Below, piece after piece: positions 2,560 through 46,252 of a DNA stretch of 64,000 bases. Within the stretch, counting starts at the first letter, position 1. Every line of letters begins with the position of its first letter. The position numbers were made by a program, and so were the translations under genes. The notes under the pieces are model-generated. The model did not search any database and was not told where the DNA came from. It worked only from the letters and a program-made list of their open reading frames with translations. Origin of the DNA: Eledone cirrhosa (lineage: Eukaryota); NCBI GenBank assembly GCA_964016885.1, contig OZ024741.1, forward strand, positions 174,282,001 to 174,346,000. Direction: 5' to 3'.

Positions 2560-4812
2560 CCTCTTAGATGAGTCACTGCCACTCATTATGACTGCCTAAT
2601 GAATCACTCTCGTTTACCATAACCCTCTGGAGTTAAATGGGTCACTCACACTCACCATGACATACAATCTGAGGTGAGAGGAGTTACTCTCACTCACTAT
2701 AACTGTCTGAGGTTGGGTGAGTCTCACTCCCCATAACTATGAAATAAGAGTGGATACTCTCACTCACCATAACTGTCTAAGGTGAGAGGGATCACTCTCA
2801 CTCACCATAACTATGTGAGGTGAAACGGATCACTCTCATTCACCATAACTGTCTGAGGTGAAAGGGATCACTCTCACTCCCCATAACTGTCTGAGGTAAA
2901 AGGGATCACTCACACTCAGCATAACTGTCTGATGTGAAAGGGATCACTCTCACTCACCATAACTGTCTGAGGTGAGAGGGCTCACTCTCACTCCCCATAA
3001 CTGTCTGAGGTGAAAGGGCTCACTCTCACTCACCATAACTGTCTGAGGTGAGAGGGCTCACTCCCACACAGCATAACTATCTGAGGTTAAATAAGTCATT
3101 CCTGAACAGCATAACGATCTGTAGTTAGGGCCTTCACTAACACTCACTATGACATACTGTCTGAGGTTAGATAAGTCACTCTTACTCCCCATAACTGTTA
3201 GAGGTTAGACGAGTCACTCTTCATTACCATTTAATGGAGGGGGCAAAGGAGGCAATAGCCTGAGGACTCCTACAGTGGGGGGTCCCACCAGTGATGGCCG
3301 TAGCAATTTATCTGTGCCCTCAGCTGGGCTTTTTAGTTTCAGGATGGTTAACATTTGTTTATTTAATACCTGTATGTATATCTTTTCAATTTCAATTACT
3401 TGCGCCAAGATAACTTTGATATGTGAAATTGGGGGTTTGCTGTGTGTTCTAATTTTTTTGTGTATCAGGGGATCTCCCAAGGTCTAAATCCATCCCTGCT
3501 CACCATATCTGTCTGAGGTTAGATAAGTCACTCTCACTCACCATAACATATTCTCTGAGGTTAGAGGAATCACTCTCACTTACAATGAAATATTGTCTGA
3601 GGTTAGAGGAATCACTTTCACTCACTATAACATACTGTCTGAGGTGAGATGGGTCACTCTAACTCACTATAAAATACTGTCTGAGGTTAGATAAGTCACT
3701 CTCACTCACCATGAAATACTGTCTGAGGTTAGAAGAATCACTCTCACTCACTATAACTGTCTAAGATTAGATGGGTCACCCTTACTCAGTATAACATACT
3801 GTCTGATGTGAGATGGGTCACTCTCACTCACTATAACATACTGTCTGAGGTTAGATAAGTCACTCTCACTCACCATAAAATACTCTCTGAGGTTAGAGGA
3901 ATCACTCTCACTCACTATAACTGTCTGTGATTATATGGATCACTCTCACTCACCAAATCTGTCTTAGGTTAGATAAGTCACTCTCACTCACTATAATATA
4001 CTGTCTCAGGTTAGATAAGTCACTCTCACTCACTATAACATACTGTCTCAGGTTAGATAAGTCACTCTCCCTCACCATGAAATACTGTCTGAGGTTAGAT
4101 AAGTTTCTCTCACTCACTATAACTGTCTGAGATTAGATGGGTCACTCTCACTCACGATATCTGTCTGAGGTGAGATGAGTCACTTTCACTCACTATAACG
4201 TAGTGTCTGAGGTGAAATGGGTCACTCTCACTCACTATAACATACTGTCTGAGGTTAGATAAGTCACTTTCACTCACCATGAAATACTGTCTGAGGTTAG
4301 AGGAATCACTCTCACTCACTATAACTATCTGAGATTATATGGGTCACTCTCACTCACCATATCTGTCTGAGGTTAGATAAGTCACTCTCACTCACTATAA
4401 TATACTGTCTGAGGTTAGATGTCACTCTCACTCACCATGAAATACTGTCTGAGGTTAGAGGAATCACTCTCACTCACTATAACTGTCTGAGATTAGATGG
4501 GTCACTCTCACTCACCATATCTGTCTGAGGTGAGAGGAGTCACTTTCACTCACTATAACGTAGTGTCTGAGGTTAGATAAGTCACTCTCACTCACTATAA
4601 CATACTGTCTGAGGTTAGAGGAATCACTCTCACTCACCATGAAATACTGTCTGAGGTTAGAGGAATCACTGTCACTCACTATAACTGTCTGAGATTAGAT
4701 GGGTCGCTCTCACTCACCATATCTCTCTGAGGTGAGATGAGTCACTTTCACTCACTATAACATACTGTCTTAGGTTAGATAAGTCACTCTCACTCACCAT
4801 GAGGTTAGATGA
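2560..4812 (+). repeat. Minisatellite, 38-41 bp unit (CTGTCTGAGGTTAGATAAGTCACTCTCACTCACTATAACATA)
   Basis: Roughly 50 tandem copies; interrupted at ~3221-3498. Confidence 0.95.
3221..3498. mobile_element. Non-autonomous DNA-transposon-like insertion in the minisatellite
   Basis: Unrelated sequence splits a repeat unit. Right end GTCTAAATCCATCCCTG (rc CAGGGATGGATTTAGAC) looks like a hAT-type terminus; left end degenerate. Confidence 0.45.
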
Positions 4813-9964: not shown

Positions 9965-10350
9965 GTAACAATTTATAGGTGTTGGCCCTAAAGAGGGCCT
10001 TTGAACGTTCACTTTGAAATATCTCTGCGGCGGTGCTGCCAGCAAAGACGAATCCGATGGTAACAATTTAAAGTTGGTGGCCCTAAAGAGGGCCTTGGAT
10101 CATTCACTCTTAAAAGTCTCAGCGGCGGTGCTGCCAGCAAAGATGAATCCGATGATAACAATTTAAAGTTGGTGGCCCTGAAGAGGACCTTTTAACGTTC
10201 ACTTTGAAATATCTCAGCGGTGGTGCTGCCAGCAAAGATGAATCCGATGGTAACAATTTAAACTTGGTGGCCCTGAAGAGGGCCTTGGATCGTTCACTCT
10301 TAAAAGTCCCAGCGGCAGAGCTGTCAGCAAAGACGACTCCGATTAGAGGT
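9965..10350 (+). repeat. 95 bp x4 tandem repeat inside the Helitron
   Basis: Unit starts at 9965, 10060, 10155, 10250. Confidence 0.9.
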
Positions 10351-14377: not shown

Positions 14378-14597
14378 AAAGGAAATGTGGTAAGGAACCA
14401 GGTGGACCATAACACACTAAAGTACCCAATACTTAGGGTAGTAGAGTGGGTAATAGGAACGAGTAGGACCCCGACGGCTGAGCTCAAGCCGTTTCGACGG
14501 CTAATTCTGGACTTTAAAAAAAAAAAAATTTTTTTTTTTTTACTCCAGAAATTGCCGTCGAAACGGCTTGAGCTCAGCCGTCGGGGTCCTACTCGTT

Positions 14598-14600
<3 letters not shown>
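14378..14600 (-). mobile_element. PLE pseudo-LTR end fragment with fold-back
   Basis: Homologous to 35535-35670. 14455-14600 is a palindrome around an A/T run and carries only the 3' half of the hammerhead. Confidence 0.75.
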
Positions 14601-14635
<35 letters not shown>

Positions 14636-14744
14636 CATACATATGTGTTAGGTAATTCCGAAGGAAAAGGAAAGGAAAAAAGAGTGCTCTATGTATAGAA
14701 CAGAGCTATTTAATTAGAAAGTGAACAACACAAAATATAACTAC

Positions 14745-15839: not shown

Positions 15840-16033
15840 GCCAGTTGCAGGAAGACGCAATAGAGGAAGGCCACAAAAACATGGGCGGAGGTGGTGAGAG
15901 CAGACCTCAGATTGCTTAAGCTTACGGTGGAGATGACGAAGGACCATGACAAGTGAAGAGATGATGTGCTGAATAGGACCTGTTCCACCCTTGCAATCAG
16001 GGAAAAGCGGACGTAAAATGATGATGATGATGA
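15840..16033 (+). mobile_element. RTE LINE 3' end
   Basis: GRPQKTWAEVVRADLRLLKLT, then the same tail as SINE B and (ATG)n. Second copy at 57545-57737. Confidence 0.8.
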
Positions 16034-16121
16034 TACATAAAAATATATGTGTTAGGTGATTCCGAAGAGAAAGCAAAGGAAAAAACGAGTGTTCTATGTA
16101 TAGAACAGAGCATTAAAAATA

Positions 16122-16719
16122 TATAAATATTTCGTATCTCCAAAGAAATACGGTTTTAGGAAGCCGTAGCTATGCAAACACCGGGGGGGGGGGGCTAACG
16201 CCCTCTGGTGATGTCCAGCAGAAAAAGACGCTTGTCCCCCCTGCTTCTGCTGGACATCACCAGAGGGCGTTAGCCCCCCCCCCCCCGGTATTTGCATAGC
16301 TACAGCTTCCTAAAACCGTATTTCTTTAGAGATACAAAATATTTATACATATTGTATAAAGCTATGCTTGAAGCAAAATCCTATTTCTTTTCTATTATAA
16401 GTTGAGCCAACTTATGCAGCTTCGTATGCAAATGAGATTAATCACCTCAGTTACACAGACGAGAAAACTATGTATTCTCGCCTGTCTGCTAGTCCAGCAG
16501 TCGCAAGTGGTGGGAGGGACCGTCCTGATGATGGCCAATTAAGCCTGAAATGCATAGATGGTTGTCCCCGTTGCTTCTGCTGGACATCACCAGAGGGCGT
16601 TAGCCCCCTGGTGTTTGCATAGCTACGGCTTCCTAAAACCGTATTTCTTTGGAGATACGAAATATTTATACATATTGTATAAAGCTATGCTTGAAGCGAA
16701 ATCCTATTTCTTTTCTATA
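16122..16719 (+). mobile_element. Retrozyme-like non-coding tandem repeat (~330 bp unit) with 5' fold-back
   Basis: 16227-16395 is repeated at 16557-16719; 16122-16223 is an inverted copy; a hammerhead sits at the unit junction. Confidence 0.65.
16519..16562 (+). ncRNA. Minimal type I hammerhead ribozyme motif
   Basis: ACCGUC-CUGAUGA-U GGC CAAUUAA GCC U-GAAA-UGCA-UA|GAUGGU; palindromic UGCA in stem III. Confidence 0.75.
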
Positions 16720-16744
16720 TAAACATATTTTGTTGTTATGTGCT

Positions 16745-17580
16745 GAAGGCAAAGAAAAAACAAGTGCTCTATGTATAGAACAGAGCTGTAAAAATATTTT
16801 GTTGTTGAAAGTATGTGATAAAGGTCCAGGATGGTAAAATAAGAGAGAATGTTCAGGAAAAGATGAAGTCAAAAAGTGAATAATATGTAAAATAAGTATA
16901 AAATAAAGTAAAATAAAATAAGTGTTGAAAATGTAAAGTAAGAGAGATTGTTCAAGGTAAAAATAAGGGAAAAAAAGAAATGAATAAAATAGGTGTAATA
17001 TAAAATAAGGGCTTAATATAAGTGTTAAATGTGTGATAAAGGTCCAAAGTGTTTAAAGTAAGAGAGAATGTTCAAGGTGTAATATATGATAAGTGTTGAA
17101 TGTGTGAAAAGGAGAGAGTCTTCACGGTGGGTAAGTGTCCAAAATGGTGTTTTGATACTGAGAAAGGAGGTGAGTTCTTATATGTGGGCAACTTTTAAAT
17201 ATCTCAGTATTAGAGTTAAGACAGGTGTTGGGAGATTTCAGATTTTGTAGAATTCTATATTTTTCTGTTATGCACAAGGTACACCTTCTTGTGCCTTTAA
17301 CATATTCTTTTGATTGGTCTAAAATAGACCAATCAATTTCATATGGAATCCCACGCTCTTTCATCTCCCACACTCTATTTGCCAGCGCCGTAGTTTTCTT
17401 TTTATCCTGGTGTCGAAAGGAATCGACGAGTTCATAGTATCTTTTTTTTAAAGGTATCCTGGGTCATGCCCACATAACGTTCTCCAGTAGAAGGTTGGTT
17501 GGTGTGAATAGGTCTTATCAGATTTGATGTTGCATTTGCCTTGCAAAGGACATTCACCTGGGTTTCTGCATACATATATA
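16745..17580 (-). mobile_element. 5'-truncated Penelope-like element (GIY-YIG C-terminus, Hydra-clade-like)
   Basis: VCRNPGECPLQGKC...RYVGMT..TFKKRY...TALANRVWEMKE..IDWSIL...RRCTLCITEKYRIL..CLN..EIFKSCPH; ORF stop at 17122. Confidence 0.8.
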
Positions 17581-22668: not shown

Positions 22669-22958
22669 AATACAAATAAATATATGATAGGGATAAACAC
22701 TGATACAAGTATACATGTGTTCGCATTGCAAATGACCAAGTTAGCTAGATTTGAAAAATACTAATTAAAATAATACGGTTTGCCTGTCTCAATTTAAAAT
22801 AATACAGGTTTGTTTTTATTGATTTATTATTTTAAATCGAGATAGGCAAACCGTATTATTTTAATTAGTATTTTTCAATCTAGCTAACTTGGTCATTTAC
22901 AATGCAAACACATGTATACTTGTATCAGTTTTTATCCCTATCATATATTCATTTGTAT
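22669..22958. repeat. Long inverted repeat (~135 bp arms)
   Basis: 22669-22805 is the reverse complement of ~22824-22958 with few mismatches. Confidence 0.9.
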
Positions 22959-23538
22959 ATATATTTATATATAGATACAATTATTACATCGACATTGTTT
23001 GACAATGAAAGATAATCTAATAAGTTGGGCATATAAATCCTGGAGACGGAAAAAATTTGTACATCACTGCCAGGTTTATATTTTTCATAGTCAAACAACA
23101 TCGATGCTTCCAGCTTTCAAATATATATATATAGTATATTTAAAATTACATATCTATACTATAAAGCTGACGGCCGTATGTAAGTAACAAACATTCCGCC
23201 AAGCGGCTGGACCAAACGGCATCAAATTTGTACCATAGATGTAACTTTTTCCAAGTAAGAAAGTGAGAGTACTTTTGTCTACTGAATTTTGTTAAAAGAT
23301 TAAAGACATTATTTAAATATTCACTTCTTTAAAATTTTCAAATGTCAACACTTCCGGTTATACAACATTCCTAACGTCTTCTTGAACCAAAGTATCATCT
23401 TCCTGTTTTCTTTTGGTTGCAAGGTTTTGCAATATTTACTTCTGCATTCACAGATTGATTTTTTAAGTTTCAGAAGATCCCGTTAATGGTGAAAGCAGCA
23501 ATTCTTTGCTTAAACTTTAATCTGTTATTTTAATATAT

Positions 23539-24284
23539 ATAAACGGAAAAAATGAAATGAAATTTCATTTCTCACTCTTAGTACGTCTGTTACTTAAATA
23601 TAAGTATGTATACGTACATACATATATGTATACAGACGTACAGTAGTATGTATATATATATATACATACATGCACATATATATATATGTACGTATGGATT
23701 CACCAAACATTTATTATAATGCTCGATGTGTTTGTAAACAAACATCCCGAATTAAGCCGAACAGTGTCTAGCAACCATCGTTGCTCATTTGTTCAACACT
23801 GACAACGGAACGCTGTACTAGTTTCAAGCTTATTAGCTATCGTCAGCAACGTATACCTTCCTGCCAGATGACTGAACGTCTGAAAGTATATACTTTCCTT
23901 ATGCATATTAACGGCTGAGCAGCCTAATTTGCATATCGAGTGAGTTAATCGGCCGGGCGCACCGAAAACGATAAACGGAAAAAATGAAACGAAATTTCAT
24001 TTCTCAGTCTTAGTACGGCTGTTACTTAAATATAAGTATGTATACGTACATACATACAGACGTACAGTAGTATGTATATATATATACATACATGCACACA
24101 TATATATATATGTATGGTTGCTAGACACTGTACGTCTTAATTCGGGATGTTTGTTTACAAACACACCGAGCATTATAATAAATGTTCGGTGAATCCATAC
24201 GTACATATATATGTGTGCATGTATGTATATATATATACATACTACTGTACGTCTGTATACATATATGTATGTACGTATACATAC

Positions 24285-24315
<31 letters not shown>
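23539..24315 (-). mobile_element. Retrozyme-like non-coding repeat (~432 bp unit, partial tandem plus inversion)
   Basis: ATAAACGGAAAAAATGAA recurs at 23539 and 23971; 24115-24290 is an inverted piece; contains a hammerhead. Confidence 0.7.
23811..23851 (-). ncRNA. Minimal type I hammerhead ribozyme motif
   Basis: CGUUG-CUGACGA-U AGCU AAUA AGCU U-GAAA-CUAG-UA|CAGCG; all core positions intact. Confidence 0.85.
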
Positions 24316-26147: not shown

Positions 26148-26149
<2 letters not shown>

Positions 26150-26689
26150 ATATAAGTATGTACACATACATATATGTATACAGACGTACAGTAGTATGTA
26201 TATATATATACATACATGCACACATATATATATGCACGTATGGATTCACCGAACATTTATTATAATGCTCGGTGTGTTTGTAAACAAACATCCCGTATCA
26301 AGCCGTAGCGTCTAGCAACCATCGTTGCTCGTTTGTTCAACACTGACAAAGGAACGCTGTACTAGTTTCAAGCTTATTAGCTATCATCAGCAACGTATAC
26401 CTTCCTGCCAGATTGTTGAACGTATATACTTACCTTATGCATATTAACGGCTGAGTAGCCCAATTTGCATATCGAGTGGGTTAATCGGCCGGGTGCACCG
26501 AAAACGATAAACAGAAAAAATGAAACAAAATTTCATTTCCCACTCTTAATATATATGTGTGCATGTATGTATATATATATACATACTACTGTACGTCTGT
26601 ATACATATATGTATGTACGTGTACATACTTATATTTAAGTAACAGCCGTACTAAGAGTGGGAAATGAAATTTCGTTTAATTTTTCCGTT

Positions 26690-26692
<3 letters not shown>
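26148..26692 (-). mobile_element. Second copy of the ~432 bp retrozyme-like repeat with terminal inversion
   Basis: Colinear with ~23600-24010; 26550-26692 is inverted. Confidence 0.7.
26355..26395 (-). ncRNA. Minimal type I hammerhead ribozyme motif
   Basis: Identical to 23811-23851 except CUGAUGA instead of CUGACGA (variable position 7). Confidence 0.85.
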
Positions 26693-26727
<35 letters not shown>

Positions 26728-27730: not shown

Positions 27731-27773
27731 GTCACTGAAGAGGTCACAGAATGTGTGACGAAAGAACTTTGAC
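27731..27773 (+). ncRNA. Minimal type I hammerhead-like motif
   Basis: GUCA-CUGAAGA-G GUCACA gaaug UGUGAC-GAAA-GAAC-UU|UGAC; lies in a dispersed repeat also found at 46300-46490. Confidence 0.65.
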
Positions 27774-27990
27774 AATATATAAACAATCATCTGGTTGTGG
27801 AACCAACCAACCAACCGGAAATTTATAAATTCCTAAATTTATAAATTTATTATAATAAATTGAAGTGAAAGCAACTGGTGTGTGTGTGTTTCTTATTGGC
27901 AACATGACCCTCCCAAAGTATAACAATATCGGTTTCAACACACGTTTTCAGATAAAGAATCTTGCTAAACAAATTCAGAAACGAAATATA

Positions 27991-28074
<84 letters not shown>

Positions 28075-28079
28075 TATAT

Positions 28080-29879
28080 TTCGTTTCTGAATTTGTTTAG
28101 CAAGATTCTTTAAATCCATCCCTAGAAATGTTTCTCTTAGAATCTCCCGCCTATCGTCCAACCAACAAACCTTCAAAGAACATGCCGAGTATTATGATGA
28201 TGCACTTAGGAAAGCCGGTCACCTAGATAATATAGAGTATATAGTCAATGATCACCAAAACACCCAAAATAAATCACATAGGAGTAGAAATAGCACAGAA
28301 TCACCACCATACATACACTACCGCAATAGACACAATAATAGTCGCACACCACCAAACAGAAGGCGATGTAAGGAGTATATCTGGTACAACCCGGTCTATA
28401 ACAAATCTATTAAAACCAATCTACCCTCAAAATTCTTTCGATTAGTTAGAAAACACTTTCCAACATCACATAAATATAATAAAATCTTAAACCCTAACAC
28501 CATCCGGCTTTCATATTCAACCGCCCCTAATATTGAACAACATATAAAAATGCTTAACGCAAAACGGTTGTATAAACGCCTTCCAACACATAACAATACA
28601 CGTAAAACATTAGCTATAACATCACAAAACAACAAACAACATCCTGTTCTACATAAGCAACCTCATCAACCCATCCATGGCAATACAACAACGCAAAATT
28701 GTAATTGCAACTGTGTCCAACCAGGAATGTGTCCGTTGAACAACCAGTGTCTTGAACGCAACATCGTATACAAATGTACTATCGAATCGGATAGACAGAA
28801 GTGGTACTATGTGGGATCTACAGCCACCTCCTTTAAATCACGCCTTTATAGACATCGTTATTCGATAAAACATGAAAACCAGCGTTATGTAACAACACTC
28901 GCAGACAAGGCTTGGCAGCTGCGTGAAAATAACCAACATTTTCACCTAAAATGGGATATAATAGCGACTGCCCCCCCATATTCCAATGGACAGGAATTTT
29001 GTAGATTATGTAATGTAGAATTATTTTGTATTATGAAATCCAAAAACATTTTATTAAATAACAGAATAGAGCGATCGTTATACTGTAACCATCGCTTAAA
29101 ATCTACATTTTCATATTATAAATACTACCAGGATTGAACGCCTGTCTCTATCCCCGTTTGATTGTCAAAATAGATATGAACATTCTTTATTAGTCTTAAT
29201 TCTATCAACTCTTCTATTATTTACCTTTTAATACAAACTGCTATAGATAAAATGAGATTTCTGATTTTTTGATTCAATTCCCTAGAGCAAATACCAGCTG
29301 ACCACTAGCATTGATGTTATTTAGTAGCAATCGAAATCTCCCCCTTCCCCAATTGACACTTTATGATTAATACTACTGCACCAAATGACCAGCCCTGTCC
29401 ACTGTCCAGTTGGTCAAGTAGAGATTAAAATCGGCACCCCCAAAATTCTTATTTAGATTTACTCATGGTATTCTCATTAAAAACCCATTATATACTTGTT
29501 TAGCAGTAAATTATTTTACCATCTGTCATATTCTATCCCCTCTGTTCCTTCCTCTTTTACTAATATAAATACTTCAATTTTTCTGATTTTATCCAGTTTA
29601 TCCAAAATCTCTGAAGAAGTGACAACTGATTATACATTTGCTATCGAATACTTGCTAACATTATATGATTACGCAAGCAGCGATACATAGGTATTCGGTC
29701 TGTTACAGAAACATATGTCAATACCTAATAAATTCCTTTTTTAACAAAAGCACTTTCATTTTATATTCATCCTTTCTACATTTCTCCGGAATATAATTTA
29801 TACTCGTTGAGCAAACCTGCACGTACGCTGTTCATCTCTAACGTAACGATATATTATCACTACATTATTGATAACCTGA

Positions 29880-35290: not shown

Positions 35291-35615
35291 AAGAAGTGAT
35301 AGCATAGGCCGCTGACTTATGATTGGTCCAAATAATAATGGTGGCGAGTGGGGGCGGGTGGGAGGGGTATGGGGTAGTTAGCGAGAAGGTTTAAATAGAA
35401 TCCTTGAATTTTGGGTATAATTGGACAAGCATATAACAGTAATAAGCGAATAATTATGGGATTTTAAAATACAAGAAGATTATTTAGAACAACCAGACAG
35501 AATTACAGAATAGCATTGAGAAAGAGCAAACAAAGGAATTGTGGTAAGGAACCAGATGGACCATAACACACCAGAGTACTCAATACTTAGGGTAGTAGAG
35601 TGGGAAATAGGAAAA

Positions 35616-35722
35616 AGTATGACCCCGACGGCAGAGCTCAAGCCGTTTCGACGGCTATTTCTGGACTAAATTAGAATTTTTAGCCTGGTGAATAAATAGC
35701 CGAACTTGTCAAGGGGGTACTT
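35616..35722 (-). ncRNA. Type I hammerhead, U3-A8 core variant
   Basis: CCCC-UUGACAA-G..CGGCUAUUU/AAAUAGCCG..C-GAAA-CGGC uugagcucu GCCG-UC|GGGG. Confidence 0.75.
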
Positions 35723-38671
35723 CCTTATATGGGAAGATTGTAGTTGTCAAGAGGATCGGTTAAAATTTGTTGTAAACACAAATAAGTCTATCATGGCATT
35801 TGGTGGGAGGTAGGGGTGGCTGAACTTGCCTGTAGAACAATAGGGGAGTGAGTGGAGCGGTCAAGTATTGAAAGTGATATGTATACAGCAGATTCTAAGG
35901 ATAGTGTATGAACTGGAGGAGGGAGGTTGTAGAATAGGTAAATCAAATGAGAGTAGGAGACAATAAAATATAATAGAAAGAAATAAAAAATATATATAAA
36001 ATTAGAAAGTGAGAAATGAATAAAAAAAAGTCCTTCGAAAACAGCATTTGTAATGTTTCCTCCGAGCATAAGTTACACGGACGGCGTCCTCCCGTGTAAG
36101 AGTTAGCTCTGGACAGTAAGCTCCAAGTGAGATTGTAGGTTATATTATTATCTTGGAGGTCCCAGATATGGCCCGAAAGTGTAGTGGCATGTCGCCGGAC
36201 CGGGTTTCGGAAAGTATGTCAGTGTTGGTAGAGCCGGGCTTTGAAGTCACACACGGTTAATCCTATATAAGCTTTGTTGGAGGTGTCCGTCCTCATGTTG
36301 CACTGGTAGATCACGTTACGTTCTCAGTATTTGTTGTTGAGGGGGCACGTAGATCTATCAGGGCAGTTACATCCCCTAGACCCAGACTCCCTACTTCACA
36401 CTGAAGGACCATAAATCCGACTTCGACCGCAAACCATCCATTAGGCTTATAAACCTAACGAAGTCGGACATAGGGAGAATCAGTAAAAAGATCCTAGACC
36501 GAGTTATACCAAAAGTTAAGCAAAACGTGAGACTTAGCCTATAGGTCAGCACCCAGGAAGTAATCTCATGGTTCAGGAATATGGAGGACAAACGAGACAC
36601 AAAATTCATCCAGTTTGACATAGAGAGTTACTATGCATCTATTACCTTACCGCTCCTTACGGCCACCTTGGACTTTGCCGAAACACTCACACCCATCACT
36701 GACCAGGAAAGAAATATTCTCCACGCCAGGAAAACAGTCCTACTTTTCGACAACTCTAAGGGTATAAAGAGAGCTCCCGACTCCCCCTTCGACGTCAGTA
36801 TGGGCGCGACGGATTCGGCCGAGGTCACAGATCTTATAGGATTATTCCGAAATGTTTCCTGCATTCGGCGGTGGATTGTACCGGGATGATGGGCTCCTCA
36901 CCCTCAATGGGTACAACCCCAGTAGTACAGACCGGGTCCGTAAACAACTAATCAACTTTTTCCGGGATTGGGGATTTAAAATCACCCTACAAACGTCCCT
37001 AACCCGAGTCAATTTCCTGGACGTTATCCTTAACCTCGAAAATGATCTGTACTACCCATACAGGAAACCAAACGACAACCTGCACTACATCCACTACCGC
37101 TCTAACCATCCTAGAAACATCACCAATAACCTGGTTAAAAACATCTCCCTCGCATATCTCGTTTGTCCGCTAATGTGCAGATATTCGACGAACACGCACC
37201 TCATTACAACCAGGCCCTCAAGCGGAGTGGTTTCCGGGAGGAAATATCCTTTTATCCAGCTTCCCTTAGCGGAACCAGCAGGCGACACCGCCGCTCATGC
37301 AACGTAACGTGGTTCAATCCTCCCCATAATGCCGAGGTGGCAACACCTATCAGGAAAATCTTCTTTAGACTCCTCGAAAAACACTTCCCACTACAACACC
37401 GCTACCACAACATAATCAACAAAAACACCATCAAACTCTCCTACAGCACCACATCTAACTTCGCAGAAAACATTGTTTCCTCAAACAACAAAAATCTCAA
37501 CCCCTATGGAAGAAATAACCTAGACATCAGTGGAGAGCCGACCAGGAGGTGTAACTGCCCTGATAGATCTACGTGCCCCCTCAACAACAAATGCCGAGAA
37601 CGTAACGTGATCTACCAGTGCAATGTGAGGACGGACACCTCCAACAAAGCTTATATAGGATTAACCGCGTGTGACTTCAAGACCCAGCTCTACCAACACC
37701 GACATACTTTCCGAAACCCGGTCCGGCGACATGCCACTACACTTTCGGGCCATATCTGGGACCTCCAAGATAATAATATAACCTACAATCTCACTTGGAG
37801 CTTACTGTCCAGAGCTAACTCTTACACGGGAGGAAACCGTCCGTGTAACTTATGCTCGGAGGAAACATTACAAATGCTGTTTTCGAAGGACCAACTCCTA
37901 AACAAGAAAGACGAACTGGTAACCACATTCAAACACAGATTGCGTAGGACTTACCTCGCCCTTAAACCCCATAACGACCCGGGTGGGTAGACAAGGGCTG
38001 ATACCCCCCCACACACACACTTGCCGAATAAGTTAGGGGAAAGCCCAGCTTACATAGGTAGATGTATCTCTTTTCTTTTCCTCTTTGTCTTCTTCTTCCC
38101 CCTGTCTCATCCTATCACTTCATTCTACCCCCTATTTTCTTCCTCGTTTGCTTTTCCCCTTTCGCCTACCCCGATGCAGCCCACGGGCCTCTGTAGCATC
38201 AGTTCCCCCACCCCTGTAATTTTAAGATAGAATTGGCCGAATACGTTTTACTAACTACTTATAGCAGATGTGTTAAACCCCTTTAATTTGTATCAGTTTT
38301 GTAATTTCTACAAGTTTTTTCTATTCTCAACTTATTAACCTGTAATTATAAGATAGCATTGTGATTTTTTTTATTCATTTCTCACTTTCTAATTTTATAT
38401 ATATTTTTTATTTCTTTCTAGTATCTTTTATTGTCTCCTACTCTCATTTGATTTACCTATTCTATAACCTCCCTCCTCCACTTCATACACTATCCTTAGA
38501 ATCTGCTGTATACATATCACTTTCAATGCTTGACCGCTCCACTCACTCCCCTATTGTTCTACAGCCAAGTTCAGCCACCCCTACCTCCCACCAAATGCCA
38601 TGATAGACTTATTTGTGTTTACAACAAATTTTAACCAATCCTCTTGACAGCTACAATCTTCCCATATAAGG

Positions 38672-38778
38672 AAGTACCCCCTTGACAAGTTCGGCTATTT
38701 ATTCATCAGGCTAAAAATTCTAATTTAGTCCAGAAATAGCCGTCGAAACGGCTTGAGCTCTGCCGTCGGAGTCATACT
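38672..38778 (+). ncRNA. Type I hammerhead, U3-A8 core variant (3' pseudo-LTR)
   Basis: UUGACAA at 38682-38688, GAAA at 38745-38748, GUC triplet at 38765-38767; one stem I mismatch. Confidence 0.7.
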
Positions 38779-38782
38779 TTTT

Positions 38783-38844
<62 letters not shown>

Positions 38845-45235: not shown

Positions 45236-45414
45236 TAAAATAACAGATTAAAGTTTAAGCAAAGAATCGGCTCTACGGTTCTTATATATCTGATATATGT
45301 ATTATCCTTATCGAGCCCTCTTTGGATTTTAGTCTTCAAATTTATTATTATTACTATATATATATATATATATGTACATATATATATGTCAGTTCCACCA
45401 CTATATATATAACG

Positions 45415-46252
45415 AAGGAGTTGTGGTAAGGAACCAGATGGACCATAACACACCAGAGTACTCAATACTTAGGGTAGTAGAGTGGGTAATAGGAAAATGT
45501 ATGACCCTGATGGCAGAGCTCAAGCCGTTTCGACGGCTATTTCTGGACTAAATTTGAATTTTTAGCGTGGTAAATAAATAGCCGAACTTTTCAAGGGGTA
45601 CTTCCTTATATGGGAAGATTGTAGTTGTCAAGAGGATTGGTCAAAATTTGTTGTAAACACAATTAAGTCTATCATGGCAGTGGGTGGTTGGTGGGGGTGG
45701 CTGAACTTGCCTGTAGAACAATGAGGGAGTGGGTGGAGCTGGTCAAGCATTGAAAGTGTAATCTATACAGCAAATTCTAAGGATTGTGTATGAAAGTAGG
45801 CCAGAGGAAATAGGCGAAAAAGGGTTCTGGAGAAAATAGAGGCGGGACGTTATAGAAGAGGTAAATCAATTGAGATTAGGAAACAATAAAAAAAATAAGA
45901 GAAAGATATATAAAAATATAAAATTGGAGAGTAAGAAGTGATAAAAAAAAAACTGTGGAGTCTAAAACAGCTGCTATAATTAGTTGGTGTTGCTTTTTCG
46001 GCCAATGCTATAGAATAGGTTAATAAGTTGAGAATAGAAGATACTAAATAAGAATTTTTGAAATTATAGAATTGGGTAGTAAAAGTAATACAAAATCTCT
46101 GGGGTCTAACACAGCTGCTATGATTAGTTAGAATTGCCTTTTCGGTCAATGCTATCTTTAATTTACTAGAGCGGGGGTACTGAGGCTACAGAGGCCCAAT
46201 GGGCTGCCTCAGGTAGGCGAAAGGGGAAATAGCCGTTGGGGTCATACATTTT

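Follow-up and report, generated by a model that had tools for sequence, protein, structure and literature searches.

A 1.5-unit insertion of a protein-free retrozyme with a predicted type I hammerhead in Eledone cirrhosa, probably copied in by a Penelope-like enzyme

In a window of 64,000 nucleotides of the Eledone cirrhosa genome (assembly GCA_964016885.1, contig OZ024741.1, positions 174,282,001 to 174,346,000 of the forward strand) we found an ORF-free insertion that consists of 1.5 units of a 330-nt tandem repeat with a single hammerhead motif, preceded by an inverted copy of part of the same unit. Our reading, to which we assign a probability of roughly two in three, is that a protein-free retrozyme with a predicted type I hammerhead was copied in by a Penelope-like reverse transcriptase/endonuclease, priming once on each target strand. 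The features of the locus, and of a second hammerhead family in the same window, are given in Table 1; all positions are those of the window.

Table 1. Coordinates of the insertion, its target site and the second hammerhead family
Feature	Position	Strand	Remark
Left flank, target-repeat unit	16069-16122	+	88.9% like 16745-16797
Left copy, likely 9-bp target-site duplication	16114-16122	+	8/9 identical to 16720-16728
Inverted 5'-truncated arm	16123-16223	-	unit +18 to about +113/+119 from cut site
Three-A spacer at head-to-head junction	16224-16226	+	from sequence
Copy A, a full unit between cut-site equivalent and cut site	16227-16556	+	330 nt, 44% GC
Type I hammerhead ribozyme motif (predicted)	16519-16562	+	cut predicted between 16556 and 16557
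Copy B, partial second unit	16557-16718	+	stops at the family's long 3' end
Tail	16670-16718	+	43-49 nt, on direct copy, missing from inverted arm
Right copy, likely target-site duplication	16720-16728	+	one mismatch to left copy
Right flank, second target-repeat unit	16745-16797	+	paralogue of left flank
Second hammerhead family, loci	23533-24292 and 26149-26698	-	hammerheads 23846 and 26390; unit about 424-432 nt

A sequence-only reading of this stretch had described a 330-nt tandem unit that starts at its own predicted cleavage site and is joined to an inverted copy of itself. The 330-nt spacing was confirmed, but the locus holds only 1.5 units and one hammerhead (Tandem Repeats Finder, with 1.5 copies present, did not report it). 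The inverted copy is indeed a head-to-head arm, but it begins 18 nt inside the unit, beyond a spacer of three A's, and the very start of the unit was not copied. Its alignment spans 16116-16223, with a clean match only from 16122/16123. The three A's are likely non-templated, although the cut-site A could have templated the last of them. The start of copy A lies at 16226/16227, 330 nt 5' of the equivalent site in copy B and at an offset of 0 or -1, in agreement with the start within about 1 nt of the cut-site equivalent that had been proposed. Positions 16226-16400 of copy A and 16556-16722 of copy B are 89.7% identical across 175 columns, with 10 mismatches and 8 gaps. The longest stop-free stretch in the copy A unit is 56 aa, which leaves it without protein-coding capacity, and the direct part as a whole is likewise ORF-free. 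Between 16245 and 16400, from the C run to the end of the shared stretch, all five substitutions have A in copy A and G in copy B, and three of these fall at CpG; this bias possibly reflects strand-biased deamination and possibly chance.

The hammerhead was confirmed by descriptor search at the position originally given, with the cut after A16556. Helix I pairs 16519-16524 with 16557-16562 and is followed by the CUGANGA core (16525-16531), helix II (16533-16535 paired with 16543-16545 and enclosing a 7-nt loop), GAAA (16547-16550), a palindromic helix III (16551-16554) and the UH positions 16555-16556, with cleavage predicted 3' of A16556. In the region of the loop 1-loop 2 contact, helix I has an internal loop and loop 2 has 7 nt. 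At the base of helix II, 16532 and 16546 are a mismatched U-U pair, in which this copy differs from the family majority. A strict descriptor, whose thresholds were chosen once matches had been seen, gave 3 matches in the window against 1 match across 100 block-shuffled windows. In an Rfam search of the window there were 0 matches at gathering score, and none of the 31 sub-threshold, hairpin-driven matches in 15900-16900 (E<=10) was to a hammerhead family. The local hammerhead fold was not stabler than shuffles (z -0.65 and -1.15). An origin of the helix III letters by CpG decay of a CG-rich loop was considered and rejected: neither position is among the variant rows listed (40 of 179), and an independent inverted copy has identical letters.

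Public data were surveyed with positions 16401-16850 (one permuted unit plus flank) as the reference, at 82% likeness. Of ten runs listed, seven contained part of this sequence and none was recorded as RNA; the four used were X1 (contigs), X8 (RAD reads), and X5 and X6 (contigs from other organisms). The family was matched by 4005 X1 contigs, 2243 X8 reads and 2 contigs each in X5 and X6; a 22-nt family motif had 0 matches in metagenome contigs and 0 in viral contigs. Head-to-tail joints between units (16718 to 16401/16402) were present in 11 X1 contigs, 1 X5 contig and 33 X8 reads, showing that the 330-nt unit closes on itself without an ORF. No listed piece spans two hammerheads, though these tandem joints exist. 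Where this copy departs from the family, the majority has C at 16529 (94% of X1 depth), A at 16532 (90%), G at 16538 (>99%) and C at 16559 (97%); at 16532, A accounts for 34,644 of 38,358 X1 depth and for 366 of 382 X8 + reads. With A at 16532 and C at 16559, helix II is closed by an A-U pair (4 bp) and helix I becomes fully Watson-Crick (6 bp), so that the consensus has kept the core and the majority letters give a complete canonical hammerhead. Core positions are absent among the 40 of 179 variant rows listed. Within helix II, X8 reads carry G>A at 16534 (199 of 382) and, at its partner 16544, C>T (147 of 478), each position being counted separately. The earlier proposal of a retrozyme-like family made through RNA is supported, and on its features the repeat would be filed as an abundant new family of animal non-LTR retrozymes.

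Two 3' ends are preferred in the family, at a distance of about 46 nt (43-49 nt). The short one is marked by a loose end at 16675 that continues into an AT repeat (24 X1 records), and the long one lies at 16718-16721, where 329 X8 reads have a loose end at 16721. X1 depth collapses past 16715, from 154,728 (16686-16700) to 70 (16731-16745). At our locus the direct copy ends at the long 3' end, while the outer end of the inverted arm lies at the short one. The 9-mer pair that flanks the structure is likely a target-site duplication, since only 1.6% of 5000 random local draws match equally well and the neighbouring paralogous target unit (16782-16812), a proxy for the empty site, has the 9-mer once. 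The target repeat occurs three times within 2.2 kb (14629-14707, 16033-16122 and 16745-16797), twice just 3' of an AT-rich microsatellite; it is multi-copy in the genome, as judged from the depth at 16746-16790, and has sharp ends at about 16749 and 16787.

An inverted 5'-truncated arm, a tail and the likely 9-bp duplication are marks of Penelope-like elements (PLEs), for which an inverted 5'-truncated copy, a tail, duplications of 8-10 bp and (TA)n targets have been described (PMC8557442, PMC3846280). The PLE tail is reported as optional and 30-40 bp long (PMC8557442, PMC3846280, PMC11167929); the tails found here, 43-49 nt in this family and about 57-63 nt in the second one, are longer. A PLE protein has been reported to cut and extend both strands, two internal initiation sites defining the tail (PMC11167929). 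On this model, a Penelope-like enzyme would have nicked the two target strands about 9 bp apart. A first cDNA would have started at the long 3' site at 16718, passed one uncut hammerhead and, having covered about 490 nt, halted at 16226/16227. Another cDNA would have set out from the short 3' site (about 16670-16675), run for ~100 nt and gained non-templated A's before it was joined end-to-end with the first. Counting against this mechanism, the duplication with its one mismatch sits in an AT-rich, repeated target sequence.

The second hammerhead family served as an internal control. Both of its loci have head-to-head arms, and in both of its hammerheads the basal pair of helix II is a U-U mismatch, as in an axolotl retrozyme hammerhead described in PMC7229834. 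In the 23846 locus, the distances from the cut to the outer ends are +219 for the arm and +276 for the direct copy; in the 26390 locus they are +282 and +218, respectively. Two fixed 3' ends, separated by about 57-63 nt, are thus exchanged between arm and direct copy, while the inner ends vary (+37, +125, +130 and -197). Because the outer ends are fixed and interchangeable and the inner ends varied, the arm was likely primed separately and not folded back.

The sequence-only reading had instead proposed that the cDNA ran off a ribozyme-cut template and folded back at the cleaved end, with 5' ends spiking clearly at the cut site across the family. In favour of this are the start of copy A at offset 0/-1, the intact hammerhead in the family majority, and an arm whose first position is no more than 18 nt away from the junction and which has a long G/C run in common with copy A. 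Long C runs, however, are frequent in the family (16 X1 records). Fold-back begins at the junction and has no reason to end at a priming site, and yet the outer end of the arm coincides with a fixed family end. Within their common stretch the arm carries 0/4 of the private substitutions of copy A, although these changes could be younger than the insertion. From the position of the outer end at the short 3' end, the missing private changes and the swapped ends in the second family we infer two separately primed cDNAs, and the fold-back at the cleaved end is not supported. A head-to-head junction formed by self-priming is possible by analogy: self-priming has been put forward for PLE head-to-head junctions (PMC3846280), and snap-back junctions were seen with R2 protein (PMC11331408). 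Cut linear templates with fold-back and a family-wide spike, taken together, we regard as unlikely.

We also weighed whether the inverted arm could have arisen as an artefact of the assembly or the library, or could be a palindrome made at the DNA level and unconnected with the insertion. No listed public piece crosses the junction of the locus, which lies outside the 16401-16850 reference. Against such an origin, the arm, copy A and copy B each differ in sequence, other copies of the family show head-to-head inverted-arm junctions in two other data sets (X1 and X5), and the likely target-site duplication encloses the whole structure. We therefore hold this explanation to be highly improbable.

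Decidedly unlikely, too, is that the repeat is the remnant of an autonomous PLE (a pseudo-LTR, pLTR) or a pLTR satellite amplified as DNA, without an RNA cycle of its own. The architecture of the locus is that of a PLE insertion, solo pLTRs have been proposed to seed local tandem repeats (bioRxiv 10.64898/2026.07.22.740005), and a few long arrays could dominate the summed depth. However, the unit is self-closing and ORF-free, and its canonical helices of 6 and 4 bp are unlike the long bulged helix II described for minimal PLE hammerheads (PMC4209133). The dispersal of ends into different flanks and the likely target-site duplication point to RNA-mediated insertion of a small unit. Finally, the copy A unit (cut to cut), folded as a circle, is predicted to be stabler than 100 of 100 shuffles (z -4.5).

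Returning to the preferred reading of two separately primed cDNAs, the start of copy A may or may not record ribozyme cleavage. In favour of run-off, an offset of 0/-1 is expected by chance in ~0.9% of cases per start, and in 2-5% (2.3-4.5%) when all three of the window's hammerhead elements are considered. Also in its favour, depth is higher 3' of the cut than 5' of it (1.25-fold in X1, 1.71-fold in X8) and rises between 16544 and 16559 by 27% (X1) and 15% (X8); against it, any 3'-anchored family has such an excess, and the largest depth steps are not at the cut but 5' of it (X8 at 16506-16535; X1, among the hammerhead bins, at 16536-16550). The predicted spike of 5' ends did not appear: no end at 16556/16557 is among the 15 of 341 loose ends listed, where a 4-record row at 16494 is included, nor among the 15 of 21 joints listed, nor among the three entries in all at which many molecules begin. 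The other clear head-to-head junctions of the family are at 16494 (4 X1 records) and 16502 (1 X5 contig), which puts them 63 and 55 nt 5' of the cut. Together with the second family, where 0/2 loci are at the cut, none of the four other clear inversion junctions is at a cut site. From this count an X1 joint between opposite strands (16457/16661) was excluded for its ambiguous orientation; it is not at the cut either way. Junctions are poorly sampled by short contigs and RAD loci, and the reference omits the junction of the locus itself, which is absent from the pieces, so the power of this 5'-end test is low.

Background from other elements points both ways. Genomic 5' junctions of R2 reflect, and are shaped by, ribozyme cut sites (PMC3774820), and linear multimers of comparable retrozymes occur in salamanders (PMC7229834). 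In contrast, the anole PLE did without cleavage in vitro, and no RNA reads were reported to start or stop at its cut site (PMC11167929). In addition, the cDNA of our direct copy had to traverse one uncut hammerhead. The cut site is probably not where most family copies start, and a dominant family-wide spike there is improbable. It is conceivable, though we would bet somewhat against it, that PLE machinery mobilises the retrozyme from ribozyme-cut linear multimers and that a minority of copies start exactly at the cut site. For this particular copy, the position of its start leaves the odds evenly balanced between run-off at a ribozyme-cut RNA end and ordinary truncation.

The window is AT-rich (GC 30-47% per 2 kb), with many microsatellites and retroelement ORF fragments, and its abundant short repeats are presumably octopus SINEs. 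A GIY-YIG fragment (PF01541) was found in 1 of the 5 ORF pieces scanned. The unit had no match to the PLE fragments of the window, and no autonomous partner sharing it was found there. Two identical minimal-type hammerhead-like motifs, at 27735 (+) and 46439 (-), have an extra base before a 6-bp helix II (G-U allowed) and a 4-bp helix I; with UU at the cleavage position they may be inactive. One of them lies about 350 nt 5' of a PLE-like ORF fragment (28091-29137). A perfect 160-bp palindrome (27953-28112) is centred on a (TA)n run at the head of a PLE-like ORF fragment. In a further PLE-like element, part of the ORF is repeated on the 5' side as an inverted copy of 348 bp (36030-36377 and 37544-37891, 96% identity), and hammerhead scans found none near this head-to-head style insertion. 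A tail-to-tail inverted pair with 74-nt arms and a central A/T run (14453-14602) represents the 3' end of a repeat that recurs at 35529-35670, 38724-38829 and 45402-45552, downstream of a PLE-like ORF (36840-37990). An imperfect 290-bp palindrome (22670-22958) and tandem arrays with periods of 95 bp (9965-10343), 38 bp (2603-3147) and 42 bp (3499-4800) were also seen.

Thousands of copies with readable ends and an intact hammerhead would allow the role of the ribozyme in the transposition of PLEs and retrozymes to be tested with genomic sequence only: cut linear templates should pile up 5' starts at the cut, whereas circles or uncut RNA should leave the profile flat. RNA circles have been proposed as templates of PLEs and retrozymes (PMC4209133, PMC7229834), and the sole reconstituted PLE used uncut RNA (PMC11167929). 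Mobilisation of retrozymes by PLEs has been argued from shared hammerheads, co-occurrence, phylogeny and pLTR similarity (PMC7229834; bioRxiv 10.64898/2026.07.22.740005). A search of the literature outside subscription journals listed no paper with arm, tail or cut-site statistics for retrozyme insertions, no report of a PLE or retrozyme 5'-end spike at the hammerhead site, and no report of hammerheads in octopus or cephalopods. The arm, tail and duplication of PLEs on a protein-free retrozyme would be evidence for this partnership at the level of the insertion. If PLE machinery does mobilise the retrozyme from cut linear multimers and a minority of copies start at the cut, the genome would archive both in vivo cleavage and the choice of a PLE-type enzyme between linear and circular templates, and the two fixed arm priming sites would be direct structural evidence for double priming and for retrozymes as PLE passengers. 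Since other animals have already yielded such retrozymes cleaved in vivo, the gain is mechanistic and not a new class.

Among known systems, R2 with its HDV-like ribozyme (PMC3774820, PMC11331408) resembles the proposal made here in that a cut sets the template's 5' end, visible in genomic 5' junctions, and in the non-templated bases at these junctions; R2 also shows snap-back (PMC11331408). It differs in its ribozyme, which is single and 5', and in being autonomous and site-specific, and for full-length R2 copies a start at the cut site is the rule, whereas here it would apply to a minority at most. Closer are the animal non-LTR retrozymes of coral, mussel and axolotl/newt (satellite 2), with tandem units of 150-450 bp (PMC7229834, bioRxiv 10.64898/2026.07.22.740005). 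As described there, they have, like our family, a canonical type I hammerhead with a weak palindromic helix III (PMC7229834), a GC content below 50% (44% here), neither ORF nor LTR, target-site duplications of more than 4 bp (here an 8/9 match at one locus), PLEs in the same genome and a predicted circle that is self-paired. Compared with these, ours is a new sequence family, known here from its sequence alone, with one hammerhead at the locus. Endonuclease-bearing PLEs (Penelope/Poseidon, Neptune and Naiad; PMC8557442, PMC3846280, PMC11167929, PMC4209133) share with the insertion a partial tandem with an inverted 5'-truncated copy at its head, a tail at one end only, an 8-10-bp duplication in AT-rich or (TA)n targets, and a hammerhead about 100-160 nt 5' of the 3' ends. 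Unlike them, the unit has no reverse transcriptase or GIY-YIG ORF, its hammerhead is canonical and not minimal, and its tail measures 43-49 nt and not 30-40. Having no ORF, the retrozyme would work like a passenger of PLEs and not like an autonomous PLE.
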